A stretch of DNA of 64,000 bases. It comes from Solirubrobacterales bacterium. GTDB lineage: Bacteria; Actinomycetota; Thermoleophilia; Solirubrobacterales; 70-9. Under the pieces are notes generated by a model. That model did not search any database. It saw only the letters and a list, made by a program, of their open reading frames with translations, and had not been told where the DNA came from. Made by a program: the position numbers and the translations under genes. The stretch's first letter is position 1, and each line of letters opens with the position of its first letter. The stretch is taken from contig DATHAL010000041.1 in NCBI GenBank assembly GCA_035296705.1, positions 16,238 to 80,237 on the forward strand, written 5' to 3'. Shown one piece after another: positions 18,067-54,246 of the stretch.

Positions 18067-18681
18067 TTATACGCGGGACGGCGACAGCAGCTCCACGCCG
18101 ACCGCGGCGCTGGCCGCGGCGAGCAGGATGCGCTCGGCGCGCTGTGCGTCGATCCCGGGATGGCCGAGAACGACCTGCAGCCCGAGGCCGTCCTCGAGCG
18201 CGACGAGGGCCCGGGCGATCGTCACGGGATCGGAGGAGAGCTCGAAGGCCCCGGACTCGGCTCCGCGCTCGATCACGCGCTCATAGAGCATCGTCTGCCG
18301 GTCGAAGAAGCTCACCGACAGCGTCGCGAACAGCCGGCTGGCCCCCGTCATCGCATCGAGCTCATAAAGCAGCCGGCTCTGTTCGTCGTCGGGCCCCGCC
18401 GGCACACCGAGCCGGACCGCCTCCCGAAGCTGCTCGACCGGGTCGCCGATGCCGCGGATCGCGTCCGCCCGGCGCTCGGCGTAGCGGCTCATCGCGTCGG
18501 TCGCGACCTCGAGCAGGAGCTCCTCGAAGTCCGGGTAGTAGTAGAGGGCGGCGCTCGACGAGAGGCCCGCCCGCTCGGCGACATCCTTCACGCGGAGACC
18601 GAGCGCCCCGCGCTCCAGGAGCACGTCGCGGGCTGCGGCGACGAGCTGCGCTCGCCTGCGCGCCTGGTCCTTTCGCCTCAT
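18067..18681 (-). CDS. TetR-family transcriptional regulator
   Basis: HTH region RRAQLVAAARDVLLERGALGLRVKDVAERAGLSSSALYYY. The internal ATG at 18681 (MRRKDQ...) gives a typical TetR N-terminus. The ORF-track start at 18726 would overlap the divergent promoter. Confidence 0.88.
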   Translation of the reverse strand: MRRKDQARRRAQLVAAARDVLLERGALGLRVKDVAERAGLSSSAALYYYPDFEELLLEVATDAMSRYAERRADAIRGIGDPVEQLREAVRLGVPAGPDDEQSRLLYELDAMTGASRLFATLSVSFFDRQTMLYERVIERGAESGAFELSSDPVTIARALVALEDGLGLQVVLGHPGIDAQRAERILLAAASAAVGVELLSPSRV

Positions 18682-18719
18682 ACCTTGAACGGTATCGCGC
18701 GTAACGGCGCAGATTGCCC

Positions 18720-18749
18720 TTGACATTGCCCGATGCGGGCGGTTATTTT
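18720..18749 (+). promoter_or_regulatory. sigma-70-type promoter candidate for the orphan SBP / C-N hydrolase operon
   Basis: TTGACA (18720-18725), 18-nt spacer, TATTTT (18744-18749), in an unusually AT-rich stretch. Confidence 0.45.
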
Positions 18750-18765
18750 TGAAATCTGATTCAAA
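18748..18765. promoter_or_regulatory. inverted repeat, candidate TetR operator
   Basis: TTTGAAAtctgATTCAAA (6/7 matching arms) overlaps the -10 and the predicted transcription start, between the divergent TetR and SBP genes. Confidence 0.4.
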
Positions 18766-18768
18766 GAA

Positions 18769-19913
18769 ATGACATCAGGGCCGCCCTGGCCGCGGCGATC
18801 GCGATCGTCGCGCTGGCGCTCGCATCGTGCGGTGGCGACGGCGGCGGCCTCGACTCGGGCGGGGAGCAGGAGGCGCAGGCGGTGCCCGCCGGCGAGGTCA
18901 CGGATCAGCTCACGATCTCGCAGTGGCCGCTCTACGTCGACCCCGGCAAGGACGGGACGATCGCGGAGTTCGAGGACGAGACCGGAATCGACGTCTCCTA
19001 CATCGAGGACATCAACGACAACTCCGAGTTCTTCGCGAAGCTCCAGCCGCTTCTCGCCAAGGACGAGTCGGGCGGGCGAAGCGTGATCACCGTCAGCGAC
19101 TGGCTGGCCCGCAAGATGTATGACCTCGGCTACCTCTACGAGCTCGACAAGTCGAAGCTCCCGAACGTCGAGGCGAACCTGATCCCGGCGCTCCGCAACC
19201 CGGCGGCGGATCCCGACCGCGATTTCACGGTCCCGTGGCAGAGCGGCATGACGGGGCTGATCGTCCGCACCGACCTCGCGCCCGGCGTCGACTCCATCTG
19301 CGACCTGTTCGACCCGAAGTACGCGGGGAAGGTCTCGATGCTCACCGAGCTTCGCGATTCGCTGCCGATGACGCTCAAGTGCATGGGCATCGACCCGGAC
19401 ACCGCGACCACCGAGCAGTGGCTCAGCGCCGTCGACAAGATCGGCCAGGCGGCGCAGTCGGGGCAGATCCGCCGCTTCACCGGCAACGACTACATCCGCG
19501 ACCTGGCGAGCGGCAACACCGCGATCGCGCTCGGGTGGTCGGGGGACGCCGTCCAGCTCCAGAAGGACAACCCGAACATCGAGTTCGTGATGCCCGTGGA
19601 GGGCTGCATGCTGTGGTCGACGAGCATGGAGATTCCGGTCGGCGCGCCGGACCCTCAGGCGGCGCTCGAGTTCATGAACTTCGTCTACGATCCGAAGGTG
19701 CAGGCCGACATCGCCGAGTGGGTGAACTACGTGACCCCGGTCTCGGGCGTCAAGGAGATCCTCCAAAAGAGAGACCCGGCGCTGGCCCGCAATCCGCTCA
19801 TCTTCCCCAGCAAGAAGTACACCGAGAACTGCACGTTCGAGCCGGTGCTCGGCGGCGAGCAGGGCGACCAGGTCACGAAGGCGTTCGAGCGCGTCCTGTC
19901 CGGCGCGTCGTGA
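18769..19913 (+). CDS. orphan PotD-like substrate-binding lipoprotein (apparent 1-nt frameshift or missing start in the signal-peptide region)
   Basis: The mature part (ORF track 18882..19913) aligns along its full length with the PotD-like protein at 36878..38017 (shared RRFTGNDY, GWSGDAVQLQ, EGCMLW, NYVTPVSG). The same frame upstream encodes RAALAAAIAIVALALASCGG but has no ATG/GTG/TTG. ATG 18769 is in the +1 frame. Confidence 0.8.
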
Positions 19914-20779
19914 GGTCGCTCTCGATCGCCGCGCTGCAGACGGCGCCGGTGCCGGGGGAGCCGGAGGCGACGCTCGCGCGGCTCGATCGCGAGGCACGGG
20001 CGGCGAGCCGGACGGCCGAGCACGCGCAGCTCCTCGTCCTGCCGGAGCTCCACCTCTCCGCGCTCCCAGGGCAGTTCGACGACCACGCCGACCACGCGGC
20101 CCGCGTCGCGGTCGAGATCCCGGGCCCGCTCACCGCGCGCCTCGAGGCGCTCGCAGCCGAGACCGGGCTCTGGCTCGTCCCGGGCTCGGTCTACGAGCGC
20201 GGCGACGACGGCCGCGTCTACAACACCGCGGTCGCGATCTCGCCGGACGACGGGCTGGTCGCGGCATACCGCAAGGCGTTCCCGTGGGAGCCCCACGAGC
20301 GCAGCGCCCCGGGCCACCGCTTCCAGGTCTTCGAGATCCCCGGCATCGGCCGGGCCGGCCTCGCGATCTGCTACGACGGCTTCTTCCCGGAGAGCTTCCG
20401 CCAGCTCGCGTGGCTGGGGGCCGAGGTCGTCATCCACCCCACGCTCACCACGACGAGCGACCGCTCGGCGGAGCTGATCACCGCGCGAGCGAACGCGATC
20501 TTCAACCAGCTCTTCGTCGTCAACCTGAACGCCGCGAGCCCGGCCGGCCTCGGCCGCAGCCTGATCGTCGATCCGGAGGGGCTCGTGCGCGCGGAGGCCG
20601 GCGCCGGCGAGGAGCTCGTCACCGACGTCATCGACCTCGATGCGGTGGCGCGCGTGCGGCGCTTCGGGACCGCGGGAGTCTCGCGGATGTGGGAGCAGCT
20701 CGATCGCGGCGCCGCGGCGGAGCTCGAGCTGCCGATGTACGAACGGGGGCGGATCCAGCCCCGGCCGGACCGCGCCTAG
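19910..20779 (+). CDS. carbon-nitrogen hydrolase (nitrilase-superfamily amidase)
   Basis: GTG 19910 overlaps the SBP stop (GTGA). Glu-Lys-Cys triad contexts LLVLPEL, YRKAFPW, AICYDGFFPE. Confidence 0.87.
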   Translation: MRSLSIAALQTAPVPGEPEATLARLDREARAASRTAEHAQLLVLPELHLSALPGQFDDHADHAARVAVEIPGPLTARLEALAAETGLWLVPGSVYERGDDGRVYNTAVAISPDDGLVAAYRKAFPWEPHERSAPGHRFQVFEIPGIGRAGLAICYDGFFPESFRQLAWLGAEVVIHPTLTTTSDRSAELITARANAIFNQLFVVNLNAASPAGLGRSLIVDPEGLVRAEAGAGEELVTDVIDLDAVARVRRFGTAGVSRMWEQLDRGAAAELELPMYERGRIQPRPDRA

Positions 20780-20828: not shown

Positions 20829-21431
20829 CTACGCGGCCAGCGCGGCGGCGCGGACGCCCAACTCCGACGCGAGCTCCGCGGCGACCAGCTCGCGCGCTCG
20901 CTCGAGGTCCATCGCCGGATCGCGGATCAGGGCGCGCAGCCCCGCGCCGTCCAAAAGCGCCATCGCGTGGTCGGCGACGCGCTCGGGGTCGACCGAGTCG
21001 AACTCGCCGCTCTCCACCCCGGTCCGGATCACCGCGGCGAGCCACTCGCGGTAGCGCTCATAGAGCCGAGCCCCAACCGGCCGCAGGGTCGGATCCCGCA
21101 CGGCACGGAGCCAGAGCTCCACCCAGAGCACCCACTCGCGCTCCTGCCTTCCGGGCAGCGGCAGGCACTCGCGGATCGCCCGTGCGAGGCGCTCCGTCGC
21201 GTTCGCGGCCTGGGGCTCGTCGCCGAAGCGCTCCTCCCCGGTCGCCTCGAAGGAGTGGATGAGCGCCTGCTCGAGGAGTTCCTCGCGGGTCGAGAAGTAG
21301 TGGTGGACCAGCGCGGTCGAGACGCCGGCGCGGTTCGCGACGCGAGCGATCCGAACGTCGTCGATCCCATCGCTCGCGATCAGGTCGCACGCCGCCTCGA
21401 GGATCCGCTCCCGCGTGTCCGCCGCCGCCAC
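20829..21431 (-). CDS. TetR-family transcriptional regulator
   Basis: 200-aa ORF. RERILEAACDLIASDGIDDVRIARVANRAGVSTALVHHYFSTREELL. Confidence 0.9.
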   Translation of the reverse strand: MAAADTRERILEAACDLIASDGIDDVRIARVANRAGVSTALVHHYFSTREELLEQALIHSFEATGEERFGDEPQAANATERLARAIRECLPLPGRQEREWVLWVELWLRAVRDPTLRPVGARLYERYREWLAAVIRTGVESGEFDSVDPERVADHAMALLDGAGLRALIRDPAMDLERARELVAAELASELGVRAAALAA

Positions 21432-21473
21432 GGTTCGAGCCTATCCCGGCGCTCGGCCGCCGCCGGCCTTCGC

Positions 21474-23087
21474 TCAGGCCGACGCCGCGACCGCGAGCCC
21501 TGCCCCCTGGTCGGCGAGGACCGCGGCCGCCGCGTTACGCCCGTTGAGAGCGATCACGCTTCCGGCGGGATGGGTGGCGGCGCCGCAGAGGTAGAGGCCG
21601 GTGACCGGTGTGCGGGCGGCGAGCCGCCCCTCCCACATCTGGTCGGGCGTCACCTCGCCCTGGAAGATGTTCCCGCCGGTGAGCCCGATCCGCGACTCGA
21701 TGTCGGGCGGACCGAGCACCTCGTGGTCGATCAGGCAGTGCTCGAAGTCCGGGGCGAAGCGCGAGATCAGGTCGATGAACTGCCGCGCGACGCCGTCGCG
21801 TGCAGCGTCCCAATCCGAGCCCGCGATGTCATATGGCGCGTACTGGCCGAACACGCTCATCAGATGCCGCCCCTCGGGCGCAGGGCTCGGGTCGTGACCG
21901 GTCTGGATGTAGATCTCGCCGAACGCGACCGCCGGCTCACCGCGCTCGCAGGCGTCGAACGCCGCCTGGGCCTCGGCCATCGTCCCCGTCGCGTCGATCG
22001 TCGCCCGCGCCGGCCACGCCTCGCCGGGCGCCGCCGTCCAGGTCGGCAGGCGCTCGAGCGCCGCGTTGAACTTGACCACGGGGCTGCGCACCTTCCAGGC
22101 CTCGAGCCGGTCGCGAAACGCCGCATCGACCTCGGCGCCGTCGAGCATCGCGAGCAGCCGCTTCGGGTCCGCGTTGCAGATCACGGTGGAGGCCCGAAGC
22201 GCCGTCCCGTCCTCGAGCACGACGCCCTCGTCCGGGACGATGCGGGCCACCGGCACGCCGCAGGCGAGCGTCGCGCCGGCCTCGGCGGCGGCGTCCGCGA
22301 TCGCGAACGAGCACATGCCCATTCCGCCCTCGACATAGCCCCACACGGGCCCCTGGCCGTCGAGGTCGCCCTGGTAGTGCATGAGCTTGATCGAGGCGGT
22401 GCCCTTCTCGTACGGCCCGCCCCAGGTGCCGATGATCCCCTGGCCGAAGAGGGCCGTCTTCAGCCGCTCGTCCGTGAGGTGTGCGTCCAGTACCTCCGCG
22501 ATCGAGGCCTCGAAGACGAGGTCGATCATCTCCTCCGAGCCGAGCAGCTCCTCGATCTCCGGGCGGGTCGGCGCGTCTCCGACCCAAGTGTCGCGCTCCC
22601 CTTTGCGCAGCCGCCTGCGGGCCTCGTCGAAGAGCTCCTCGTAGGCCCAGTAGCCCGCGACATCTCTGTCGGAGACGCCGAGCTCCCGCAGGTTGGCCTC
22701 GGTCCTGGCGTCGTCCAGCCACTGCCCGAACGCGGTCCCGTCCTCGAACGGGACCCAGAGGTTCGGGTCGGCGACCCAGTAGCGCAACCCACGCGAGCGC
22801 AGGTCGAGCTCGGAGATCACGAGCTCGTCGAGGAGGCCGACGACGTAGGCGCAGGGACTGACGACGTAGCGTTCGTCGGCGAACGGGCGCTCGAGCGTCG
22901 CGGCGCCGCCGAGCCGCTCGCGCCGCTCGAGCACGAGGACCGAGCGTCCGGCACGCGCCAGATAGGCCGCGGCGGTGAGGCCATTGTGGCCGCCGCCGAC
23001 GATGATCGCGTCCCAGTCGCGCGCCGCGAGCTCTGCGACCGGCGCCGGCAACCCGGCCTCGCCGAGCTGCCGCGCGATGTCGTTCAC
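21474..23087 (-). CDS. FAD-dependent oxidoreductase, PYROXD2-like / phytoene-desaturase superfamily (copy 1)
   Basis: 537-aa ORF. DWDAIIVGGGHNGLTAAAYLARAGRSVLVLERRERLGGAA dinucleotide-binding motif. C-terminal GLYLCGAATHPAGSV. Start overlaps the Rieske gene stop by 4 nt. Confidence 0.88.
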   Translation of the reverse strand: MNDIARQLGEAGLPAPVAELAARDWDAIIVGGGHNGLTAAAYLARAGRSVLVLERRERLGGAATLERPFADERYVVSPCAYVVGLLDELVISELDLRSRGLRYWVADPNLWVPFEDGTAFGQWLDDARTEANLRELGVSDRDVAGYWAYEELFDEARRRLRKGERDTWVGDAPTRPEIEELLGSEEMIDLVFEASIAEVLDAHLTDERLKTALFGQGIIGTWGGPYEKGTASIKLMHYQGDLDGQGPVWGYVEGGMGMCSFAIADAAAEAGATLACGVPVARIVPDEGVVLEDGTALRASTVICNADPKRLLAMLDGAEVDAAFRDRLEAWKVRSPVVKFNAALERLPTWTAAPGEAWPARATIDATGTMAEAQAAFDACERGEPAVAFGEIYIQTGHDPSPAPEGRHLMSVFGQYAPYDIAGSDWDAARDGVARQFIDLISRFAPDFEHCLIDHEVLGPPDIESRIGLTGGNIFQGEVTPDQMWEGRLAARTPVTGLYLCGAATHPAGSVIALNGRNAAAAVLADQGAGLAVAASA

Positions 23088-24277
23088 GCCGGGACCTCGC
23101 TGCCCGCCCGCAGCGCCTCCATGTAGCGGTCGGCGACCATCACGTCGAAGGCGTGGACGTCCACCTCCTCCGCCGAGTACCGGCCGGCCGTGTAGCCGCG
23201 CGTCGCGACTCCCTTCTGCGCCAGCTCACAGACGCGCCAGTCCTGGCGGTTCACCGTGTCCCAGAACCGGACGGCATCGGAGGGATCGAAGTCCGACCGC
23301 GCGATCGTCGCCGGTTCGAAGAACCACTCACAGACCACCTCGGTGCGCCCAGCGGCCCGCGGCCACAGGGTGTGGAGCATCAGATAGTCGGGATGAAGCG
23401 AGACGAGCGCGTTCGGAAAGAGCGCGAAGTAGAGCACCGTCTCGAGGTCGCGGCCCTCGAGCCCCTCGATCGGCGGTCTCCCGGCGGCGGCGCCGTCGCC
23501 GTTCACCGCCATCGTCCGCGTCCCGTCCCTGAGCGTCATCGAGCCGCCGCACCACTCCCCCTCGCCGACGACCGCGTCGCCGCTCATGTAGTCGCTGAGC
23601 GCCTGCAGCTCCGGGTGCACGCCGGGGCAGTGCAGGCACTCGTTGTAGTTCTCGGCGATCCCCTTCCAATTCGCGGCCACGTCGTAGGTGACCGCGTCCG
23701 CGCGCTCCAGGGTCTCGACCCGGTAGCGACGCAGGTGAGAGAGCAGGTCGCCCACGTGCTCGTCGGGCTCCGGCGCCGCGCCCGAGAGGTCGATCAGGAC
23801 GAGCCCGCCGACCACGGCCAGGCGGACCTCGATCAGCCCCCAGCAGGAGAACTCGAAGTCCTCGACGCCGTCCATGTGCGGCGCCGCGCGAAGCTCGCCG
23901 TCGAGCCCGTATGACCACGCGTGATACGGGCAGCGAAGCCGCCGCCGCACCTGGCCCTCGGCCTCGTTGACGATGCGCGCGCCGCGGTGGCGGCATACGT
24001 TGAGGAAGGCCTGCGGCCGCCCGTCCTCCCCGGCGATGACCAGGACGCTGTCCGGCCCGAGCTCGCGGGTGAAGAACTTGCCGGGGGCGTCGACCGCCGA
24101 GACGTGACCCGCGCAGACCCAGCCGGTGAACAGGTTCTCGAGGTCCCAGGCGAAGACGCCCGGATCGCTGAATGCCCGCGGCGGAAGCATCGTCGCGCGC
24201 TCGAGCGGCTTTCGCGTCAGCGCGATGTCTCGGGGGTCGAGCTCGAGGCTGGCGGTCGAGGGCGGATCGGTGCGCAA
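23084..24277 (-). CDS. Rieske [2Fe-2S] non-haem-iron oxygenase, alpha-type subunit (choline monooxygenase/GbcA/CntA-like branch)
   Basis: 397-aa ORF. Rieske motif CRHRGARIV...CPYHAWSY. Mononuclear-iron region ENYNECLHCPGVHPE. Confidence 0.9.
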   Translation of the reverse strand: MRTDPPSTASLELDPRDIALTRKPLERATMLPPRAFSDPGVFAWDLENLFTGWVCAGHVSAVDAPGKFFTRELGPDSVLVIAGEDGRPQAFLNVCRHRGARIVNEAEGQVRRRLRCPYHAWSYGLDGELRAAPHMDGVEDFEFSCWGLIEVRLAVVGGLVLIDLSGAAPEPDEHVGDLLSHLRRYRVETLERADAVTYDVAANWKGIAENYNECLHCPGVHPELQALSDYMSGDAVVGEGEWCGGSMTLRDGTRTMAVNGDGAAAGRPPIEGLEGRDLETVLYFALFPNALVSLHPDYLMLHTLWPRAAGRTEVVCEWFFEPATIARSDFDPSDAVRFWDTVNRQDWRVCELAQKGVATRGYTAGRYSAEEVDVHAFDVMVADRYMEALRAGSEVPA

Positions 24278-24339
24278 GGGTCTGGCCTCCTCAATCGGTT
24301 TTGTGCGCCCGCGCGCGCCGCACTGCGCCTCGGGCTTGT

Positions 24340-24357
24340 GTTGACCTTGTAGTCAAC
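24340..24357. promoter_or_regulatory. palindromic operator candidate, copy 1 (GTTGAC-CTTGTA-GTCAAC)
   Basis: Perfect 6-bp arms in the divergent intergenic region between the Rieske gene and the acyl-CoA dehydrogenase gene. The 19-mer TTGACCTTGTAGTCAACCG recurs identically at 27649-27667. Confidence 0.55.
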
Positions 24358-24360
24358 CGC

Positions 24361-25587
24361 ATGATACGCTGCGCCGAGATGGAGGTCAAGGCGGCTCCTG
24401 CCCGCGAGGCCGTGGCGCCGCGCGCCGACGCGGGTCCGCGCGCGCTTGAGATTCAGGCGCGCGCCCGTCGCTTCGCGGAGGACGTCCTGATGCCGCTCGA
24501 GCAGGAGGCCGAGCGCCGCGGCGGCCGCCTCCAGCGGGAGACGATCGAGACCGTGAGGCGCGAGGCGACCGCGGCGGGCCTTGCCGGTGGGCTGCACGCA
24601 GCCGAGCACGGCGGCCAGGGATGGACGCGGCTTCAGTGGGTGCTGGTCGAGGAGCAGTACGGGCGGACGACGAATGCGATCCACTGGCACGTCCCGAACG
24701 CCTACAACGTCTGGGCGCACGCGTCCGACGCGCAGGTCGACCGCTATCTGCGCCCGGCCCTGCGCGGCGAGCTCAAGGACGCATACGCGGTCACCGAGCG
24801 CGACGCCGGCTCCGACCCGTCGCGGATCGCCGCCACCGCGGAGCGCACCGAGGCCGGCTTCCGGCTCAACGCCGAGAAGTGGTTCGTCACCTCCGGCGAC
24901 CACGCCGAAGTGATCGTGGTGATGGCGAACCTCATCGAGGACGGCGAGCGGCTGCCGACCCTGTTCGTCGTCGACCGCTCCCGCGACGGGATCGAGGTGG
25001 TCGAGGACCCGGACTTCACGCACAGCTACCCCGACGGCCATCCGACGATCCGGTTCAGCGACGTCGAGCTCGGCCCGGAGGACGTGATCGGTGAGATCGG
25101 CGGCGGCGAGGAGCTCCAGCGCTCGTGGTTCACCGAGGAGCGGCTCGCGATCGCGGCCCGCTGCTGCGGCGCGATGTGGCGTCTGCTCGACGAGACGGTG
25201 ACCTGGGCGACCAGCCGCGAGCAGGGCGGCGCGCGGGTGTACGACCACCAGGGCGTCTCGTTTCCGCTCGCCGATTCGGCGGCCGACGCCGCGGCCGGGC
25301 GCGTGATGACGCTCGCCGTCGCCGAGCTCGCCGACGCCGGCGCCGACCCGAAGCTCGTCCACCACAAGGCGTCGATGGCAAAGCTGTTCATGAGCGAGGC
25401 GGCCTGGCGCTGCGCCGATCGCTGCGTGCAGGCGTTCGGCGGGCGCGGATACCTGCGCTCGAACGTCGCCGAGCGACTTCTTCGCGAGCTCCGCGTCGAC
25501 CGGATCTGGGAGGGGACCAGCGAGATCCAGCGGCTGATCGTCGCCCGCGGCCTCGAGAGCCGCGGCGTCGAGGCGATCCTGCACTGA
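24361..25587 (+). CDS. acyl-CoA dehydrogenase family protein
   Basis: ATG at 24361 (or 24379) inside the shadow-extended ORF 24172..25587. ACAD-like throughout (DAYAVTERDAGSDPS, ...IWEGTSEIQRLIVARGL). Confidence 0.9.
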   Translation: MIRCAEMEVKAAPAREAVAPRADAGPRALEIQARARRFAEDVLMPLEQEAERRGGRLQRETIETVRREATAAGLAGGLHAAEHGGQGWTRLQWVLVEEQYGRTTNAIHWHVPNAYNVWAHASDAQVDRYLRPALRGELKDAYAVTERDAGSDPSRIAATAERTEAGFRLNAEKWFVTSGDHAEVIVVMANLIEDGERLPTLFVVDRSRDGIEVVEDPDFTHSYPDGHPTIRFSDVELGPEDVIGEIGGGEELQRSWFTEERLAIAARCCGAMWRLLDETVTWATSREQGGARVYDHQGVSFPLADSAADAAAGRVMTLAVAELADAGADPKLVHHKASMAKLFMSEAAWRCADRCVQAFGGRGYLRSNVAERLLRELRVDRIWEGTSEIQRLIVARGLESRGVEAILH

Positions 25588-25591
25588 CGCC

Positions 25592-27652
25592 TTGGACCTG
25601 ACGCCCCTGCTCGCGCCGCGGTCGATCGCCGTCGTCGGCGCCACCGACCGCCCGGGCTCCTACGGCGGTAACGTCCTCCGCAACCTCGAGCGGGCCCGCT
25701 TCGAGGGCGAGGTCTGGGGTGTGAACCCAAACCGCGACGAGGCGCTCGGCCGGCGCTGCGTGGCCGAGATCTCCGAGCTGCCGAGTCCGGTCGACGCGCT
25801 CGTCGTCGCAATCCCCGCCCCCGGCGTACCGGCGGCCATCCGCGCCGCCGCCGAGCGGGGCTGCGGGGGCGCGATCGTGCTCTCGGCCGGGTTCGCCGAG
25901 ATCGAGTCGGGGCGCCAGCTCGAGGCCGAGCTGCGCGAGGTCGCGCTCGCGAGCGAGCTGCCCGTGTGTGGGCCGAACGGCAACGGGATCGTCTCGGTCG
26001 CCGCGGGCGCCGCGATCTGGGGCGACGGGCTCGGGCCGCTTGCGGCCGGACCCGTCGCGATGGTCACCCAGAGCGGCAATGCGGGCGTCAACGCGCTCGG
26101 CTCGCGGCGCGCGATCGGGTGGCACACCGTCGTCTCGACGGGGAACCAGGCGGTCTGCGACGCGAGCGACTGGCTCGCAGCGCTCGCGGAGCGCGAGGGG
26201 GTGCGCTCGGTGGCGCTCTTCCTCGAGTCCGATGGTGACGGGGCGAAGCTCGCGGAGGCGCTCGCCGCCTGCGCCGAGCGAGGGATCGGCGTCGCGGTGC
26301 TCAAGGTCGGGATCTCGGCGGCCGGAGCCCACGCCGCCGCCGCGCACACCGGCGCGGTTGCCGGCGACCAGCGCGTGTTCCGCGCCCTGGTCGAGGAGGC
26401 GGGCGCCGCCTGGGCCGAGGACTTCCACGACCTGCTCGAGCTGGCAAAGGCGCTGGCCGAGCCACGGGCGCGGCCGAGCGGCCCGGGAGGCCTCGCGGTG
26501 CTCACCTGCTCGGGAGGCGACTCCGGCGTCGCCGGGGACCGGGCGGCGGAGCTCGGCCTGCCGTTGCCCGAGCTCGGCTCCACGACGCGCGCGCGGCTCG
26601 CCGAGCTGCTCCCCGAAGCGGCGACGATCGCGAACCCGCTCGACTACACGGCGATGATCTGGGGCGACGCCGAGCTCCTGAGCGAGATCGTCGCCACGGT
26701 CGGCGACGACGAGGCGGTCGACCAGCTCCTGCTCCTGTACGACCACCCGGCCGACGCGGACGCCTCCTGGGACGGAGTTCGCGCCGGGCTCGTCGCGGGC
26801 GCCGAGCGGACCGGGGCCGCCGCGCTCGTCGCCTCGACGCTCCCGGACCTGCTCGATGAGCGCGCGGCGCGCGAGCTCTCCGCCCGGGGCCTGCCGGCAA
26901 TCGCGGGACTTCGCACCGCGCTCGTCTGCGCGCGGGCGCTGCGCTCGGCGGTCGGCGATCCGGGCCGACTGCGCGCGATCGCCGCCGCAGCGCGGAGCCG
27001 GGCCGCCGGAGGCGACGGCGGCGAGTGGCTCGGCGAGGGGCCAGCGAAGGAGCTCCTCCGCGCGGCGGGGATCGCTGTGGCGGCCGGTACGCAGGTCGAG
27101 GACCTCGAGGCCTGCACGAGGCTCGCCCACGAGCTCGGCTGGCCGGTCGCCCTGAAGCTGAGCGGCCCCGACATCACCCATAAGAGCGACGTCGGCGGGC
27201 TCGTGCTCGGGATCGCCGACGAGCGCGAGCTGAGGCTCGCCTATGAGCGGCTTCGCTCCGGCCCGGCGGGAGCCGGCGCGGCGATCCTGGTCGAGGAGAT
27301 GGTCGCCTCGCAAGCCGAGCTGCTCGTCGCGGCGCGCGGCGACGCGGTCGTCCCCGCGCTCGTCGTCGGCCTCGGGGGCGTCTGGACCGAGGCGCTGGCG
27401 GACGTCGCCGTGATCCCCCTCCCCGCCTCGCCGGCGCGAGTGGAGGCGGGGTTGCGCTCGCTCCGCGGCGCCGCCGTGATCGCCGGCGGGCTCGCCGACG
27501 GTCCCCTCGCGCTTGGGGCCGCGGCCGAGCTCGCCTCGCGGCTAGGCGAGCTCTTGATCGGCGAGCAGCTCGAGCTGATCGAGCTCAACCCGGTCGCGCT
27601 CACCACCGAAGGCGCGGTGGCGCTTGACGCGGTCGCTCGGAGCGCGGCTTGA
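25592..27652 (+). CDS. ADP-forming (NDP-forming) acyl-CoA synthetase family protein (CoA-binding + succinyl-CoA-ligase-like + ATP-grasp domains)
   Basis: 686-aa ORF, TTG start. N-terminal SIAVVGATDRPGSYGGNVLRNL CoA-binding fold. C-terminal ATP-grasp part (GWPVALKLSGPDITHKSDVGGLVLGI). Confidence 0.88.
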   Translation: MDLTPLLAPRSIAVVGATDRPGSYGGNVLRNLERARFEGEVWGVNPNRDEALGRRCVAEISELPSPVDALVVAIPAPGVPAAIRAAAERGCGGAIVLSAGFAEIESGRQLEAELREVALASELPVCGPNGNGIVSVAAGAAIWGDGLGPLAAGPVAMVTQSGNAGVNALGSRRAIGWHTVVSTGNQAVCDASDWLAALAEREGVRSVALFLESDGDGAKLAEALAACAERGIGVAVLKVGISAAGAHAAAAHTGAVAGDQRVFRALVEEAGAAWAEDFHDLLELAKALAEPRARPSGPGGLAVLTCSGGDSGVAGDRAAELGLPLPELGSTTRARLAELLPEAATIANPLDYTAMIWGDAELLSEIVATVGDDEAVDQLLLLYDHPADADASWDGVRAGLVAGAERTGAAALVASTLPDLLDERAARELSARGLPAIAGLRTALVCARALRSAVGDPGRLRAIAAAARSRAAGGDGGEWLGEGPAKELLRAAGIAVAAGTQVEDLEACTRLAHELGWPVALKLSGPDITHKSDVGGLVLGIADERELRLAYERLRSGPAGAGAAILVEEMVASQAELLVAARGDAVVPALVVGLGGVWTEALADVAVIPLPASPARVEAGLRSLRGAAVIAGGLADGPLALGAAAELASRLGELLIGEQLELIELNPVALTTEGAVALDAVARSAA

Positions 27653-29369
27653 CCTTGTAGTCAACCGGACAAGGTGCTACGGTCTGGGCATCGAGCCGGC
27701 GACCAAAGCACCCGGTCCCCCCGAGGCGAGACCGTCGGCGGCGCGGCCGGGAGGCGGCGAGTACGACGCGATCGTGGTCGGCGGCGGCCACAACGGGCTC
27801 ACCGCGACCGCCTACCTCGCCCGCGCGGGGCTGCGGGTGGTCTGCCTGGAACGGCGCGAGGTCCTCGGCGGCGCCTGCGTGACCGAGGAGCTCTGGCCGG
27901 GCGCACGCGTCTCGCGCGCCTCCTACGTGGTCTCGATGCTGCAGCCGAAGGTCGTCCGCGAGCTCGAGCTGGAGCGCTTCGGCTATCGGGCGATCCCGCT
28001 CGACCCCGCATACGTGTCGCTCACCGAGCAGGGGCCGATCTTCTTCTTCAGCGAGGTCGAGCGGACCGCGGCCTCGATCGCGCGGTTCTCGCGCCACGAT
28101 GCCGAGGCCTACCCCGCCTTCGAGGCACTCTTCGACCGGGTGGCGGAATTCGTCAAGCCGATGATGCTCCGGGAGCCGCCCGCGGTCGGCTCGAGGCACG
28201 CGGGAGACGTGGTCGCCCTACTTCGCGAGGCGGCGCGCATGGCCGGCTTCTCCAAGCGCGCGGTCCACGAGCTCGTCCGCGTGTTCACGATGTCGGTCGG
28301 CGACCTGCTCGACGATTACTTCGAGCTCGACGGGCTCAAGGGATCGACCGCGTCGAGCGGAGTGGTCGGTGTGTGGGCGGGGCCGCGGACACCCGGCACC
28401 GCCTACAACCTCCTCCACCACGCGCTGGGCCAGTGCGGCGGGATCGAGGGCGCGTGGGGCCAGGTGATCGGCGGCATGGGCGCGATCAGCCAAGCCCTCG
28501 CGCGCTCGGCGGAGTCGGCGGGAGCCGAGATCCGGACCGGTGCCGAGGTCGCGTCGATCGACGTCAGCGGCGGTCGGACGGTCGGCGTGACGCTCGCCGA
28601 CGGAACCGAGCTGCGAGCGCCGATCGTCGCCTCCGGCGCGCACCCGAAGCGGACCGTCCTCGATCTCGTCGGCGCCGATCACTTCCCGGCGGAGGTCGCC
28701 GCCGAGATCCGCCGCTACCGGACCCGCGGCGGCTCGGTCAAGGTCAACCTGCTCCTCTCCGAGCCGCCTCGCTACACCGGGGTCAGCGAGGAGGAGCAGC
28801 GGCTGATGATGACCGCCGGCGTCAACGTGTGCCCGTCGATCGACTATCTCGAGCGCGCATGGCAGGACGCCACTCTTGGCAGACCCGCGGAGCACCCGTA
28901 CGTCGAGGCGGAGCTGCCGACCGCGGTCGATCGGTCGCTCACCGACGACGGCCGCTGGGTGATGACGATGTTCACGCAGTACGGGCCGCCGGATGAGGCG
29001 GGCTGGCCCGAGGGCGCCCGCGAGCGCTACGCGGACGCCTGCGTCGAACAGCTCGCCCGCTTCGCGCCGAACATCCCGGACGCGGTGCTCGAGCGCGAGG
29101 TGCTCGCGCCACCCGATCTCGAACGGATCTTCGGCCTCGAGGGAGGTTCGATCTTCCAGGGCGAGCAGGGGCTCGACCAGATGGCGTTCATGCGCCCACA
29201 TCCGGAGATGGCGCAGTACGCGACCCCGGTGGCCGGGCTTTATTTGTGTGGCGCCGGCACCCATCCCGGCGGCGGCGTCACCGGCTGCTCCGGGCACAAC
29301 GCGGCCCACCGGATCCTCAGAGACCGCAGGCGCGCGCGACGGCCGTGGCGCCGGCGGGCGACCGCTTAG
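27624..29369 (+). CDS. FAD-dependent oxidoreductase, PYROXD2-like (copy 2)
   Basis: 581-aa ORF. EYDAIVVGGGHNGLTATAYLARAGLRVVCLERREVLGGACVTEELWPGARVSRASYVVSMLQPKVVRELELERFGY closely follows my recollection of the human PYROXD2 N-terminus. Start is uncertain. TTG 27624 overlaps the upstream gene by 29 nt, and no canonical start lies between the operator and the GxGxxG motif. Confidence 0.87.
   Translation: MTRSLGARLDLVVNRTRCYGLGIEPATKAPGPPEARPSAARPGGGEYDAIVVGGGHNGLTATAYLARAGLRVVCLERREVLGGACVTEELWPGARVSRASYVVSMLQPKVVRELELERFGYRAIPLDPAYVSLTEQGPIFFFSEVERTAASIARFSRHDAEAYPAFEALFDRVAEFVKPMMLREPPAVGSRHAGDVVALLREAARMAGFSKRAVHELVRVFTMSVGDLLDDYFELDGLKGSTASSGVVGVWAGPRTPGTAYNLLHHALGQCGGIEGAWGQVIGGMGAISQALARSAESAGAEIRTGAEVASIDVSGGRTVGVTLADGTELRAPIVASGAHPKRTVLDLVGADHFPAEVAAEIRRYRTRGGSVKVNLLLSEPPRYTGVSEEEQRLMMTAGVNVCPSIDYLERAWQDATLGRPAEHPYVEAELPTAVDRSLTDDGRWVMTMFTQYGPPDEAGWPEGARERYADACVEQLARFAPNIPDAVLEREVLAPPDLERIFGLEGGSIFQGEQGLDQMAFMRPHPEMAQYATPVAGLYLCGAGTHPGGGVTGCSGHNAAHRILRDRRRARRPWRRRATA
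27648..27665. promoter_or_regulatory. palindromic operator candidate, copy 2
   Basis: cTTGACCTTGTAGTCAAcc. The TGA stop of the synthetase gene (27650-27652) lies inside the left arm. Confidence 0.5.
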
Positions 29370-29817: not shown

Positions 29818-31263
29818 CTACGGCTCGATGTTGATCATCACGTGCTTGACCTCGGTGTAGTCCTCGACCGAGTACATCGACATGTCCTTGCCGTAGCCGG
29901 ACTGCTTGTAGCCGCCGTGCGGCATCTCCGACGCCATCGTGATGTGGTTGTTGATCCAGACGGCGCCGAAGCGGATCGCATTGGCGACCCGCAGGGCGCG
30001 GCCGAGGTCGCGGGTCCACACCGAGGCGGCGAGCCCGTAGCGGGTGCCGTTCGCCCACTCGATCGCCTTCTGCTCGTCGTCGAAGCGCTGCACCGTCATC
30101 ACCGGGCCGAAGATCTCGTCCTGGATCATCTCGTCGCCCTGCTCGAGGTTCGCGACCACGGTCGGCTCGTAGTAGAAGCCGGGGAGCTCGGGCTCCTTGC
30201 CGCCGGTGACGACCTCCGCGTGACCGGGCTTGCGCTCGATGAAGCCCTCGATCCGCTCGCGCTGGCGGGCCGAGATCACCGGCCCGAGCGTCGTCTCGGG
30301 ATCGTTGAGGTCCCCCATCTTGTAGCCCCTCGCCTCCTCGGAGAGGGCGTTCACGACGTCGTCGTAGACGTCGCCCGCGGCCAGGATGCGGGTCGAAGCC
30401 GTGCAGTCCTGGCCGGCGTTGAAGAGCCCTGTCGCGGCCACGAATTCGGCGGTCGCCGGGATGTCGGCGTCGTCGAAGATGATCACCGGCGCCTTGCCGC
30501 CGAGCTCGAGGTGGACGCGCTTGAGCGTGTCCGCCGCCGCGCGGGCGATCCACTTGCCGGTCTCGGGCGAGCCGGTGAGCGACACGAAGTCGACGTCCGG
30601 GTGCGTGACGAGCGACGCGCCGGCCGGCTCGCCGTGGCCGCCGATGACGTTGAGAACGCCCGGCGGCAGGATCTCGCCCGCGATCTCGGCAAGCTTGAAG
30701 GTCGAAAGCGGCGTGTTCTCGGCCGGCTTCAGCACCGAGGTGCAGCCGGCCGCGAACGCCGGGCCGATCTTCCACATCGCCATCATCAGCGGGTAGTTCC
30801 ACGGCGTGATCTGCCCGCAGACGCCGATCGGCTCGCGGCGCACGAACGACGTGTGGCCCTCCACGTACTCGTTCGCGGCCTTGCCCTCCATGTTGCGCGC
30901 CGCGCCCGCGAAGAAGCGCAGGTTGTCCGCGCACATCTCGAGCTCCTCGTCGATGAACGCCTGGCGTGGCTTGCCCGCGTCGGCGGACTCGAGGTCGGCG
31001 AACTCGTCGCCGTGTTCGAGGATCGCGTCCGCGAGCTTCAGCAGGCACTCCGAGCGGTAGCGCGGCGTCGTCACCCCCCACGTCTCGAACGCCTTGCGCG
31101 CCGCGGCTACGGCGCGATCCACATCCTGGGCGTTCGAGACCGGTGCCTGGGCGATCGCCTCGCCGGTCGACGGGTTGATGACGTCCTCGGTCTGCCCGTC
31201 GACGGGGTCGACGAACTCGCCGTTGATGAAGTTCTGAAGCTTCGTGCCGGTGACGGTTGCCAT
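29818..31263 (-). CDS. patD: gamma-aminobutyraldehyde dehydrogenase-like NAD-dependent aldehyde dehydrogenase
   Basis: 481-aa ORF. Aligns block by block with my recollection of E. coli PatD/YdcW ([63 protein letters not shown]). Confidence 0.9.
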
Positions 31264-31277
31264 CTTGTTTCTCTCCT

Positions 31278-32480
31278 TCAGTTGCTGGTTCGTCCGTTCG
31301 GGACCGCGTGCGAAGCGGTCGCGCCGGCGCCGTCGGCGCCCGGCGCGCCGATCTCCGGCGCGCCGATGTCGAGCACCTGCTCGGGCGGCACGTACTCCAT
31401 CCCCACCCCCGCGGCGACCGCTCGATGCGTGACCTTGCCGGCGGCGACGTTGATCCCGAGCTTGAGCCCGGGGTCGCGGCGCGCCGCCTCTGTGACACCG
31501 AGATCGGCGAGCGCCAGCACGTAGGGAAGCGTCGCGTTGGTGAGCGCGTAGGTCGAGGTGATCGGGACGGCACCTGGCATGTTGGTCACGCAGTAGTGGA
31601 TGATCCCGTCGACCTCGTAGGTCGGGTCGCCGTGCGTCGTCGGGCGCGAGGTCTCGAAGCAGCCGCCCTGGTCGATCGCGACGTCGACCAGGACCGCCCG
31701 ATCCTTCATCAGCCCGAGCTGCTTGCGGGTGATCACGTGGGGAGCTCGGGCGCCGTGGACGAGCACGGCGCCGATCACGAGGTCCATCTGCGGCAGCCTC
31801 TCCTCGATCGAGAGCCGCGAGCTGAACACGGTGGAGGCACGACCGCCGAAGGCGACATCCAGCTCACGCAGCTTGTCGAGCGAGACGTCGTAGACGAAGA
31901 CGTCCGCCTCCATCCCGATCGCGATGAACGCGGCGTGCATGCCTACGGCGCCGCCGCCGATGATCATCACGTTTGCCGGCGGCACACCCGGGACGCCGCC
32001 GAGCAGGATGCCGCGGCCGCCGAGCGGGCGCTCGAGCATGAAGGCACCGGCCTGCGTGGCGATCTTCCCGGCGACCTCCGACATGGGGGCGAGTAGCGGC
32101 AGCCGTCGCGAGCGGTCCTCGACCGTCTCGTACGCGACGCAGGTGGCGCCGGATTCACAGAGGCCCCGCGTCAGCTCCGGGGCCGGGGCGAGGTGCAGGT
32201 AGGTGAACAGGGTCTGGCCCTCGCGCAGCATCGGGACCTCCTCGCGCTGCGGCTCCTTGACGCCGAGGACCATCTCTGCCTCGGAGAAGACGTCCTCGGG
32301 CGTCGGCACGATCCGCGCGCCCTGGGCCTCGTAGTCGGAATCGGAGATCCCGCTGCCCGCACCCGCGCCCGCCTCGATCAGCACGTCGTGGCCGTGCTCG
32401 GAGAGCTCGCGCACGCCGATCGGGGTGATCGCGACGCGGTACTCGTCGGGCTTGATCTCGGTCGGTACCCCTATCTTCAT
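31278..32480 (-). CDS. ald: alanine dehydrogenase
   Basis: Internal ATG at 32480 of the merged ORF 31278..33302. [40 protein letters not shown]..., NAD motif [18 protein letters not shown] overlap with the PucR stop. Has a C-terminal tail of about 30 aa. Confidence 0.93.
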
Positions 32481-34051
32481 CTCACCAGCTCCCTTGCCCT
32501 CAGCGCGAGCCACAGCTCGATCCGGTCGGTCGCCCGCGACATGTCCCTGCCAGTCAGCTCCTCGATCTTGCGCATCCGGTAGCGCAGCGTGTGGCGGTGG
32601 CAGTAGAGCTGCCGCGCCGCGCGCTCCCAGTTGCCGTTGTTCTCGATGAACGCCTCGAGCGAGCGCAGGAGCTCCCCGCCATACTCGCCCTCGGTGCGCT
32701 CGATCGGCTCCAGGAGCCCCTCGCTGTAGAGCCTCAGGGCGTCGTCGTCCTGAAGCGCGAGCAGCAGGGTGAACGCGCCAAGGTCGCGATGCGAGGCGAC
32801 CTCGGGCGCCCCGCCGTCGCTGAGCGCGGTGGCCTCGAGCGCGCAACGCGCTTCGTGGAACGCTCGCCGCAGCGAGCCCACCGCGGCTGGCCGGCTCGCC
32901 GCCGCCCTGACGCCGGCGCCGTTTCGCCCCGGCCCGCCCGTGAGCGCCTCGCGGGCGCGCCGCGCGGTCCGGATCGGGTCGCCGCTCGCCGCGTCGACCA
33001 CCGCGCACAGAAGCGGCCTCCCCGCGGCCGCGCTGGTGGCCACGAGCGCCGGCACCCCCGCCTGCGTGAGCGCGCCCTCGAGGGTCGCCTCCGCCGCCGG
33101 CGGGTCGTCGAGCTCGAAGATCAGCACGGCCGCCTCCGGGCCGATCCCGAACGGCCGCAGGCGCCCTCGCAGCTCGTCGGGATCCAAGCGCTCGCCCAGC
33201 GCGTCGGCGAGCAGGTCGCCGGCGAGCCTGCGCTCGGTCTCGTGGACGATTCGCTCGCGCATCAGCTCCAGGCCCACGACCATCGCCGCCTGCCGCGCGC
33301 ACAGCCGCTCGAAGTCGCCGAGCGGGTCGGTATCGGCGACCACGACGAGCCAGCCGACGGGCGCGCCGCCCCGTCGTCCCGGGACCGGGATCGCGAGTGC
33401 GCGCCCCGCGAGCTCGGGGTGCTCGGAGGCGTACGGCGCGTGGGCCCCGGCGGGCTGCTCGGCGGCCAGCTCGCTCGCGAGGGCGGCGAGCGCCTCCGGC
33501 TCGGGCTCGCGGCCGCTCGAGCGGCGGCCGAGCTCGCGGCCGGTGGCGTCGAGGACGATCGCGGTGCCGCCGACGGCCGCACCGGTCGAGGCGAGCACCT
33601 CGTCGAGGCCGGCGCCCTCGACCACCAGCCCCTCGAGCCGCTCGTGGACCTGGACGCCGCGTTCCAGTACATCGAACTGCTCGTTCACGAGCCGCGCCGC
33701 GGCCCGCTCGGTGATCGCGATGAACGGCATCTCATACGGGACCTCGAACAGCGGGATGCCGCGCGCGTCGGCCGCCCCGACGATCGCCTTCGGAAGCCGC
33801 TTGTGATCGAAGCCGGTGCCGAAGCCGAGTCCGGCGAGGCCGTGGTCGGCGAGCCGCTCCAGGTAGCGGCGCTGCTTCGCTGCGCTCGGCAGGCTAGGGC
33901 CCGTGGTGAGCAGAAGCTCGCCGCCGCGCAACCACGGGGTAGGGTCCTCGTGCTCGGAGATGTGCACCCAGCGCACGGAGCGATCGGCGCCCACCTCGCC
34001 CGCGGCGAGCTCGAGCCCGCAATCGGAGACGAGGCTGCCTACGGTGAGCAT
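32477..34051 (-). CDS. PucR/CdaR-family transcriptional regulator
   Basis: 524-aa ORF. C-terminal PucR-type HTH ARQLYCHRHTLRYRMRKIEELTGRDM. N-terminal purine-catabolism-regulator-like domain. Confidence 0.9.
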   Translation of the reverse strand: MLTVGSLVSDCGLELAAGEVGADRSVRWVHISEHEDPTPWLRGGELLLTTGPSLPSAAKQRRYLERLADHGLAGLGFGTGFDHKRLPKAIVGAADARGIPLFEVPYEMPFIAITERAAARLVNEQFDVLERGVQVHERLEGLVVEGAGLDEVLASTGAAVGGTAIVLDATGRELGRRSSGREPEPEALAALASELAAEQPAGAHAPYASEHPELAGRALAIPVPGRRGGAPVGWLVVVADTDPLGDFERLCARQAAMVVGLELMRERIVHETERRLAGDLLADALGERLDPDELRGRLRPFGIGPEAAVLIFELDDPPAAEATLEGALTQAGVPALVATSAAAGRPLLCAVVDAASGDPIRTARRAREALTGGPGRNGAGVRAAASRPAAVGSLRRAFHEARCALEATALSDGGAPEVASHRDLGAFTLLLALQDDDALRLYSEGLLEPIERTEGEYGGELLRSLEAFIENNGNWERAARQLYCHRHTLRYRMRKIEELTGRDMSRATDRIELWLALRARELVR

Positions 34052-34070
34052 GCCGGCGCTCGGACTCCCC

Positions 34071-35480: not shown

Positions 35481-35584
35481 CTCTCCTCCTACGACTTCTG
35501 GGCCATATAGTCTCGACGTTCCGTACAACGGTAGCCGCCCGCCGACCCGAACACAACGGGGAGTCGGTTCAATGTGGGCGTAAT

Positions 35585-35598
35585 CTCTTGTACAAGAG
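35585..35598. promoter_or_regulatory. perfect 14-bp palindrome CTCTTGTACAAGAG in divergent promoter region
   Basis: Sits midway in the 209-bp region between the aminotransferase operon (-) and the PotA-like gene (+). Flanked by two direct copies of CCGTACAAC (35521-35529, 35643-35651). Confidence 0.45.
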
Positions 35599-35635
35599 GT
35601 ATAAGCAGGATTGGACGTTTTGGGGCTTTCGCCCC

Positions 35636-48617: not shown

Positions 48618-48635
48618 AAGCCGGTCGCGCGTGCA

Positions 48636-50051: not shown

Positions 50052-50060
50052 AGGGGTCCG

Positions 50061-54245: not shown

Positions 54246-54246
54246 C

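Follow-up and report, generated by a model that had tools for sequence, protein, structure and literature searches.

The window analysed here is a 64,000-nt stretch of Solirubrobacterales DNA (64 kb in total, G+C ~70%), and the subject is a set of six genes between positions 20829 and 29369 that is arranged around two exact copies of one operator-like sequence. The genes encode a Rieske non-haem iron oxygenase, two FAD-dependent oxidoreductases of the PYROXD2 family (PYX1 and PYX2), an acyl-CoA dehydrogenase (ACAD), an ADP-forming acyl-CoA synthetase (ACS) and a TetR-family regulator (TetR1). Tentatively, and with a little less than even confidence, we suggest from the sequence that they constitute a TetR-repressed, two-operator regulon that breaks down a quaternary or N-methylated aliphatic amine, in which PYX1 and PYX2 would be methylamine dehydrogenases. 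The most likely class of substrate would be a quaternary (trimethylammonio) or N-methylated amine of the polyamine or omega-amino-acid type. That the genes form one functional unit is shown by the operators that they have in common and by their conserved linkage. Oxidation of methylated amines is indicated by the group V signature in the Rieske sequence, by the company that PYROXD2-like genes keep elsewhere and by human genetics.

Gene organisation and operators

The six open reading frames (ORFs) and their domains had been proposed in an earlier note on this DNA, and Pfam finds the expected domains in all six. The Pfam scans cover approximately the first 57 kb of the window, and a scan for Fe-S motifs took in all high-GC3 ORFs over the full 64 kb. 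On the minus strand the Rieske gene (23084–24277) encodes the alpha subunit only of a predicted group V (quaternary-ammonium type) oxygenase. It is followed by PYX1 (21474–23087), a divergent member of the PYROXD2 family, and the operon ends with TetR1 (20829–21431). The start of PYX1 overlaps the Rieske gene by 4 bases, to which it is translationally coupled. On the plus strand ACAD (24379 to 25587, with an alternative ATG at 24361) is followed by ACS (25592–27652), an enzyme of the ADP(NDP)-forming type with fused alpha and beta parts, and then by PYX2 (27690 to 29369, start uncertain), which is a core-clade member of the PYROXD2 family.

The two operons diverge from an 83-bp gap (24278–24360) that contains GTTGAC-CTTGTA-GTCAAC. 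This had been described as a perfect palindrome, which is correct for the 6-bp arms but not for the 6-base spacer CTTGTA. Operator O1 (24341–24356, no strand assigned) is the 16-mer TTGACCTTGTAGTCAA within this divergent Rieske/ACAD control region. The 16-mer has two exact matches in the window, where 0.02 would be expected. The second (operator O2, 27649–27664, likewise strandless) had been overlooked; it overlaps the stop codon of ACS and lies just 5′ of the PYX2 promoter. An identical 16-mer is found at the same intergenic (ACAD/Rieske) position in 11 related loci (L001–L005, L008–L010, L012, L013 and L084), unchanged even in its non-palindromic spacer though the proteins are only 60–85% identical. 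The two sites of the relatives are located in the divergent region between ACAD and the Rieske gene, and in that between PYX2 and a class-III aminotransferase gene. The window has lost the aminotransferase gene at the O2 site, yet operator and promoter are retained there.

O1 overlaps the −35-like hexamer TTGACC of the ACAD promoter, and a −10-like hexamer, TACGCT, ends 8 nt 5′ of ATG 24379. This arrangement places the start of ACAD transcription at or just before that ATG, which is probably the start codon of a near-leaderless message; the public gene call for ACAD is 402 aa in length. The Rieske gene has a ribosome-binding site, GAGGAGG, 8 nt before its TTG start codon at 24277. In the orthologous loci O2 is followed by an extended −10 element (TGnTAnnnT) and then, 6 bases further on, by ATG GAG, a geometry that implies a leaderless PYX2 mRNA. 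The window has ATC (27690) at the position of this start codon, as do two further assemblies (L081 and L082) and two other lineages (L002 and L027). Upstream of it just one canonical start codon is in frame, TTG 27624 within the ACS gene, and the public call at GTG 27774 would lose the first Rossmann strand. The ATC is either an unusual start codon or the cause of reduced expression.

TetR1 comprises the Pfam domains TetR_N and TetR_C_6 (PF13977, the BetI-type C-terminal domain; 96 bits). An orthologue is found downstream of PYX1 or of the Rieske gene in ~20 related loci, and TetR1 is the presumed binder of both O1 and O2. Identification as the choline-responsive BetI itself (TIGR03384) was rejected, with a score of 84.4 bits against the equivalog cutoff of 201.3 and a match to PF13977 only.

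The encoded enzymes

The Rieske protein matches the Pfam families Rieske (65.8 bits) and Ring_hydroxyl_A (163.7 bits). Its CxH...CxxH motif is CRHRG...CPYHAW, which is present as reported in the earlier note, together with the iron-site motif NECLHCPGVHPE. The nearest solved structures are those of Stc2 (3vca, 134.7 bits), 3n0q and CntA (6y8j, 110.9 bits). The stretch ENYNECLHCPGVHPEL aligns with DNYMECYHCGPAHP of CntA and ENNRECYHCSSNHP of Stc2, and the residues equivalent to Tyr203, the bridging Glu205, the Cys206/Cys209 pair and His208 of CntA are all retained. A bridging Glu, a Cys-x-x-Cys pair and His make up the group V signature of Quareshy et al., and for its characterised members the reported substrates are quaternary ammonium compounds (PMC7948474, PMC10952381). 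Judged by this signature, the protein belongs to the quaternary-amine group V and not to an aromatic ring-hydroxylating clade, a placement that by the earlier note would have refuted its reading.

Within group V, Tyr203 of CntA stacks on the trimethylammonium group, and this Va state is found in CntA, choline monooxygenase and OxyBAC, while Asn at the same position is assigned to the whole of the demethylating clade Vb (PMC7948474). The window protein has Tyr and Stc2 has Asn. Tyr or Phe occupies this position in 84 of 85 Rieske homologues from the related loci. The CntA-type tyrosine would be no weaker a pointer to C–N cleavage than to demethylation. Assignment as GbcA (NF058607) was rejected at 196.6 bits against a cutoff of 670, with the best stretch confined to the N-terminal half, and orthology with CntA or Stc2 was rejected on scores of only 111–135 bits to the solved relatives.

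No dedicated reductase adjoins the oxygenase, and none of the CntB, GbcB or Stc3/4 type is found in the 64-kb window. Pfam finds no ferredoxin, ferredoxin reductase or FNR-type protein in approximately the first 57 kb, and the sole match of the Fe-S motif scan over the 64 kb is the Rieske protein itself; both scans agree with the earlier note in this respect. An identical copy of the Rieske protein is carried on three contigs of ENA metagenome assemblies, and its nearest genomic relatives are metagenome-assembled genomes of Solirubrobacterales and Conexibacteraceae. A large protein collection contains thousands of homologues, the top matches (70–88% identity) coming from soil metagenomes.

PYROXD2 is a conserved human mitochondrial flavoprotein with a link to disease and some of the strongest known metabolite quantitative trait loci. 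Reference sequences were obtained using a human PYROXD2 sequence as the query, which matched primate PYROXD2 entries at 98% identity, and were verified by source name. PYX2 is 37% identical to primate PYROXD2 over 576 aa (370 bits, E=6e-126) and PYX1 is 33% identical over 548 aa (266 bits, E=2e-86), and in both cases the homology to the mammalian protein runs the full length. The earlier description of the match as almost residue for residue was thus overstated, although identity is visibly higher in the N-terminal segment to which it referred. PYX1 and PYX2 are 36% identical to each other (E=3e-77). Six other distant loci encode Rieske-linked PYX proteins that match mouse PYROXD2 over their whole length, with 36–42% identity. 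An alignment of ten sequences from mammals, bacteria and an archaeon, including PYX1 and PYX2, has 53 invariant columns. Comparison of scores places PYX2 among those bacterial proteins that most resemble mouse PYROXD2, and PYX1 in a separate divergent clade that is found only in Solirubrobacterales and in one Ilumatobacteraceae locus.

Variants and expression of human PYROXD2 track urinary trimethylamine (TMA) and plasma dimethylamine (DMA) (PMC3169529), and its variants also track N2-acetyl-N6,N6-dimethyllysine (PMC13352909). Full-text literature searches found no reaction assigned to PYROXD2 up to July 2026. They also found no characterised bacterial PYROXD2-like enzyme, and no paper that ties such proteins to Rieske or GcvT-type genes.

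ACS is composed of the Pfam domains CoA_binding_2, Succ_CoA_lig and ATP-grasp_5. The nearest solved enzymes are 3-hydroxypropionate-CoA ligase (223 bits), 4-hydroxybutyrate-CoA ligase (217 bits) and DddX (204 bits), the lyase of dimethylsulfoniopropionate (DMSP). All three act on C3–C4 omega-substituted acids, including the sulfonium compound DMSP. The swinging-loop phosphohistidine of the ACD superfamily is kept, with the His of AAHTGAVAGD aligned to His292 of DddX, an ACD-family enzyme able to act on an onium carboxylate (PMC8163506). A DddX-type lyase was rejected, as Trp391, Glu432 and Phe435 are not conserved (Thr, a gap and Ser are aligned with them, in a weak part of the alignment). ACAD contains the three Pfam N, M and C domains and the motif IWEGTSEIQ, the Glu of which we take to be the MCAD-type catalytic base. 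Its best curated model is acryloyl-CoA reductase AcrC (score/cutoff 158.5/640), with CaiA at 124, and the solved relatives are generic short- and medium-chain ACADs.

Conserved linkage, proposed pathway and rival explanations

A scan with the Rieske protein over one genome per species gave 596 relatives, of which the best 80 loci were kept. Linkage was derived from tblastn and unbiased clustering of ORFs, in 84 Rieske-anchored loci and 164 related loci overall. The common layout, seen in ~20 Solirubrobacterales loci, is PYX2 <- (aminotransferase ->) <- ACS <- ACAD / Rieske -> PYX1 -> TetR, which continues downstream of TetR1 as (-> TetR) -> SBP-permease-permease-ATPase, where SBP is a substrate-binding protein. 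In most relatives the aminotransferase, 46–53% identical to that of the window, lies inside the regulon and is divergent from PYX2. Among the best 80 loci an ABC ATPase gene is present in 46, PYX in 42 (≤400 bp from the Rieske gene in 21), TetR in 40, ACS in 32, SBP in 30, aminotransferase in 26, ACAD in 19 and a sarcosine-oxidase-beta-like gene in 10. One relative has a gene for a 3-hydroxyacyl-CoA dehydrogenase between ACS and PYX2.

PYX is also found in 22 of 57 distant loci (Rieske identity ≤46%). These include loci of Mycolicibacterium, Mycobacterium, Kineosporia, Acidimicrobiia, Acidobacteriota, Hyphomicrobium, Gammaproteobacteria and one Thermoplasmata archaeon. The order in Mycolicibacterium and Mycobacterium is ACS-PYX-TetR-ATPase-aminotransferase-SBP-permeases-Rieske. 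Among isolates, variants of the module are found in Kineosporia sp. R_H_3 and Mycolicibacterium komossense DSM 44078. Across phyla, clusters of Rieske and PYX genes often include a polyamine-type ABC transporter, TetR, an ADP-forming CoA ligase and a class-III aminotransferase. The earlier note had allowed that the genes might show no conserved linkage; linkage is in fact strongly conserved across genomes and phyla. A gene of the GcvT type adjoins PYX in three Rieske-anchored loci (L030, from a Kineosporia isolate, L046 and L021) and occurs in L045. In six Actinomycetota/Nocardioidaceae loci (L055, L058, L062, L064, L065 and L068) two group V-type Rieske genes flank TetR and a gene of the N-methyltryptophan-oxidase family (283 bits against a cutoff of 257), with an Opp/Dpp-type ABC transporter alongside; L055 and L068 additionally have a PYROXD2-like gene.

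A metagenome scan by alignment led by mouse PYROXD2 gave a further set of 80 loci, whose proteins are 40–55% identical to the mouse enzyme. The commonest neighbour of PYX in this set is a GcvT-family folate-binding aminomethyltransferase (PF01571 with PF08669). It directly adjoins PYX in 20 of the 80 loci, and in 13 of the 38 that have at least 1.3 kb of flanking sequence on both sides. These GcvT-like proteins score best to the C-terminal tetrahydrofolate (THF)-binding part of the trimethylamine N-oxide demethylase Tdm (208–291 bits), above GcvT. Other neighbours are amino-acid permeases (10 loci), SET-domain genes (4), PurU (3) and an N-methyltryptophan-oxidase-like gene. The SET-domain genes (lysine methyltransferase fold) are small and lie directly beside the PYROXD2-like gene, in L137, L139, L140 and L156. 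Rieske genes are present in 9–10 of the 80 loci, with the group V motif and Tyr or Phe in six of nine, and 70 have no Rieske neighbour.

Tandem co-oriented pairs of PYX genes occur in 20 of these 80 loci (within L109–L161), and also in L021, L067, L003 and L005. Such pairs may stand for the subunits of a heteromer or for enzymes of successive steps. They are not equivalent to the pair of PYX1 and PYX2, as the second tandem copies are not PYX1-like. In L149 (1666–10609) and L142 (3312–11631) an operon has the gene order APC permease, ArgE/DapE-type deacylase, DDAH/ADI-like hydrolase, GcvT/Tdm-like, PYX, PYX and group V-type Rieske, which hints at release and oxidation of methylamine from methylated compounds of the arginine or lysine type. 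The company of PYROXD2-like genes outside the window includes folate-binding Tdm-like, PurU, sarcosine-oxidase-like and DDAH-like genes.

From these observations a pathway may be proposed. Without inducer, TetR1 would occupy O1 and O2 and block the promoters of Rieske-PYX1-TetR, ACAD-ACS and PYX2; in the relatives, O2 would control the aminotransferase gene too. The Rieske oxygenase would take electrons from a reductase encoded elsewhere and hydroxylate the carbon beside the charged nitrogen. Hydroxylation of carbon at a quaternary nitrogen would be a reaction beyond a flavoenzyme, and the CntA-type tyrosine suggests that the head group would be bound as in CntA. The product of this step could be an aldehyde and trimethylamine, by C–N cleavage, although we consider this rather unlikely; removal of one methyl group is unlikely too. 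Cleavage is slightly favoured over single-methyl removal on account of the CntA-type tyrosine, and it would explain why the Rieske–PYX pair is constant when the genes that handle the skeleton vary between lineages. PYX1 and PYX2 would dehydrogenate tertiary and secondary methylamines, either free TMA and DMA or amines still attached to the skeleton, yielding formaldehyde equivalents. A class-III aminotransferase and an aldehyde dehydrogenase would turn the skeleton into a short acid, either omega-substituted or dicarboxylic. Its CoA ester would be made by the ADP-forming ligase and would receive a 2,3 double bond from ACAD, leading to beta-oxidation.

The earlier note had suggested a pathway for an amine or betaine with oxygenation, activation without formation of AMP and dehydrogenation of the CoA ester. 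That outline fits all of the findings, and the GcvT/Tdm-like surroundings of PYROXD2-like genes support it independently, but the Rieske protein is not a GbcA orthologue. More broadly, it is possible, if somewhat doubtful, that all members of the PYROXD2 family, the human one among them, are FAD-dependent dehydrogenases of tertiary and secondary methylamines (such as TMA, DMA or N-methylated lysine-type compounds), in prokaryotes acting after a quaternary-amine Rieske oxygenase and elsewhere with a Tdm-like folate-binding protein that takes up the methyl carbon. If so, the regulon would represent a bacterial route for quaternary amines that has not been described before, and the control that human variants exert on the levels of TMA, DMA and the dimethyllysine derivative would be explained.

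A number of observations weigh against the degradation of a methylated amine. The SBP linked to the cluster in relatives is PotD-like (147.7 bits to spermidine/putrescine binding protein), and we know of no member of the PotD-like family that binds quaternary amines. The flanks of the window itself form a putrescine-type module. GcvT, PurU and formaldehyde-handling genes are absent from the window and its close relatives, and no reductase or ferredoxin family recurs in the 84 Rieske-anchored loci on unbiased ORF clustering, or is present in the window. As a match to the Rieske protein, the demethylase Stc2 outscores CntA, so that the choice between Va and Vb depends on one residue. The ACAD and ACS assignments leave the substrate range broad, hinting generically at a short-chain or omega-substituted acid. 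Lastly, the PYX2 start codon is non-canonical in the window, which makes the level of PYX2 expression uncertain. An attempt to read the substrate from the SBP was abandoned: that of the relatives is PotD-like but not specific and has no counterpart in the window, where the SBPs are different proteins of only 28% identity.

The strongest competing explanation is that an unmethylated polyamine is broken down (spermidine, spermine or norspermidine, for example), and it has a real, if rather low, probability. Here the Rieske protein and PYX would cleave internal C–N bonds, the aminotransferase and aldehyde dehydrogenase would lead to derivatives of beta-alanine or gamma-aminobutyrate, and the CoA ligase and ACAD would take the resulting C3–C4 acid. 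The PotD-like SBP and PotA-type ATPases of the relatives are consistent with this, as are the class-III aminotransferase inside the regulon in most of them and the fragment of a PAO-type amine oxidase in four Rieske-anchored loci. So are the window flanks, where two more Pot-type transporters accompany a module of putrescine aminotransferase, alanine dehydrogenase and aminobutyraldehyde dehydrogenase, and polyamine oxidases have the Pfam family PF01593 in common with PYX. The constant Rieske partner argues the other way. Flavin amine oxidases alone are enough for secondary amines, so that degradation of a polyamine leaves that partner unexplained, and quaternary ammonium compounds are the reported substrates of characterised group V enzymes. 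In addition, PYROXD2-like genes elsewhere are accompanied by folate-dependent methyl-capture genes closest to Tdm, and not by polyamine genes.

Two other readings give different roles to the flavoproteins. They could be C–C desaturases or ketolases whose substrate, the skeleton of a lipid, an isoprenoid or an acyl-CoA, is also hydroxylated by the Rieske protein and beta-oxidised via ACS and ACAD, with no amine involved. ACS and ACAD do suit acid catabolism in general, CrtO (NF045689) is the best curated model for both proteins (170.9 bits for PYX1 and 275.1 for PYX2), and CrtI (4dgk) is their only full-length solved relative. However, the CrtO cutoff is 1000, the scores to crtI_fam (TIGR02734) are 80 and 119.8 respectively against 238.1, and CrtI, at 57 and 74.7 bits, is far more distant than PYROXD2. 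No crt or isoprenoid gene family recurs in the 164 related loci, and the carotenoid context that the earlier note had kept in mind is absent, with no crt genes near any of them. The neighbours that do recur are polyamine-type transporters, omega-aminotransferases, and GcvT/Tdm-like, sarcosine-oxidase-like and group V Rieske genes. A carotenoid function was rejected for both proteins, and the desaturase reading as a whole is improbable. Still less probable is that PYX1 and PYX2 are the missing electron donors of the Rieske protein, coupling oxidation of an amine or NAD(P)H to reduction of its cluster, as the earlier note had also suggested. The sole hint of this is the lack of a linked reductase gene in the window and of a recurring one in the 84 Rieske-anchored loci, and nothing specific has emerged in its support. 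PYX does lie next to the Rieske gene in 21 of 80 loci, and in the window the Rieske gene and PYX1 share bases. Unlinked reductases, however, serve many actinobacterial Rieske systems. PYX1 has no cysteine cluster, neither PYX ORF matched the Fe-S motif, and neither has by Pfam the second nucleotide-binding domain of known Rieske reductases; most PYROXD2-anchored loci, moreover, are those without a Rieske neighbour.

All of the superfamilies in the regulon are known ones, and its logic is that already familiar from quaternary-amine catabolism. It is valuable as a way into both a widespread soil pathway and a human enzyme that is still an orphan. The prokaryotic contexts converge on the oxidation of methylated amines, which makes the function of PYROXD2 directly testable with few substrates, and the exactly conserved operator together with TetR provides a ready-made means of finding the inducer. 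If degradation of a methylated amine is correct, the regulon would represent a widespread and undescribed soil route for quaternary and N-methylated amines, with a bearing on methylamine and nitrogen cycling.

Flanking genes and comparison with known systems

Beyond PYX2 the window contains a putrescine-type module on the minus strand (29818–35657). It comprises genes for an aminobutyraldehyde dehydrogenase (29818–31263), an alanine dehydrogenase (31278–32480), a PucR regulator (32477–34051, from Pfam) and a class-III aminotransferase (34071–35657). The three enzymes are above their NCBIfam cutoffs (score/cutoff 712.6/615, 496.3/391.85 and 724.6/574, respectively). The module has a different regulator, and its link to the regulon is uncertain. 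The island continues to 39786 with a Pot-type ABC transporter, whose SBP is 62.5% identical to that encoded at 18882–19913. In all, the flanks have three transporters of the Pot or YdcS type.

On the other side lies a neighbouring unit (18067–20779) with a second BetI-type TetR (18067–18726, minus strand), a PotD/F-like lipoprotein SBP (about 18756–19913, plus strand) and a CN_hydrolase (19910–20779, plus strand). Relatives have TetR1-(TetR)-SBP-permease-permease-ATPase at this position. An AT-rich palindrome, TTTGAA-ATCTGA-TTCAAA (18748–18765), is located between the second TetR gene and the SBP/CN_hydrolase operon and is probably the operator of this TetR; it does not share its arms with the Rieske/ACAD operator. 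A clear lipoprotein signal peptide, RAALAAAIAIVALALASCGG (within 18753–18881), is encoded upstream of the first canonical start of the SBP ORF (18882–19913). The only in-frame start candidates after the preceding stop codon are CTG 18756, ATT 18759 and ATC 18774, and this is possibly a second non-canonical start in the window. Further away, 673–5058 (plus strand) encodes a 1461-aa E2o-E1o fusion with two lipoyl domains, an E3-binding domain, an E2 acyltransferase catalytic domain and a complete 2-oxoglutarate dehydrogenase E1. The section 45829–57000 is an ordinary phosphate-metabolism region with polyphosphate kinase (45829–48006), Ppx/GppA (50061–50975), a response regulator, PhoU and Pst-type transporter genes.

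The closest parallel for the oxygenase in residues is CntA of the Acinetobacter CntA/CntB system (group Va). Both are homotrimer-type alpha subunits without a gene for a beta subunit, and the Rieske CxH...CxxH motif, the bridging Glu and Cys-x-x-Cys pair, and the trimethylammonium-stacking tyrosine are all aligned. Overall similarity is limited to 110.9 bits, and the C-terminal half hardly aligns. There is no adjacent CntB-type reductase in the window, where the partners are instead PYROXD2-like proteins, ACS and ACAD.

The glycine betaine route of Pseudomonas (GbcAB, DgcAB, then SoxBDAG), and likewise Stc2, follows a similar logic, in which a Rieske enzyme acts on the quaternary nitrogen and flavoenzymes on the tertiary and secondary amines. 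Of the curated models GbcA fits the window Rieske protein best, and of the solved relatives Stc2 does. The flavoenzymes of the window have a PYROXD2/CrtI fold, unlike DgcA or the DAO fold, and the window has a CoA ligase and ACAD in addition and is without GbcB. The reactions proposed for PYX, from TMA to DMA to monomethylamine, are carried out in methylotrophs and marine bacteria by Tmm, Tdm and DmmDABC. The GcvT-like partners of PYX elsewhere best match the THF-binding part of Tdm; the window has no GcvT-like gene. No homologue of the Tmm/Tdm/Dmm enzymes was seen here, and the catalytic flavoprotein would have a different fold.

The overall logic of the window is also like that of the DMSP pathway, in which DmdABCD provides a demethylase, then a CoA ligase, then an ACAD, for a small onium-propionate. 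DmdB is AMP-forming, whereas ACS is of the ADP-forming type. DddX belongs to the three nearest solved relatives of ACS, but its cation-pi residues (Trp391 and Phe435) and base (Glu432) are not kept. In contrast to the DMSP systems, the host of the window is a soil actinobacterium with a polyamine-type transporter.

Of the known flavoproteins, CrtI, CrtO and CrtD have the FAD fold and the Pfam family PF01593 in common with PYX. They differ in that PYX scores are far below the cutoffs, crt genes are not nearby and the context is one of hydrophilic amine metabolism. Mammalian PYROXD2, the mitochondrial orphan flavoprotein, is homologous to PYX1 and PYX2 from end to end, and the human protein has a mitochondrial presequence, unlike its two counterparts in the window.

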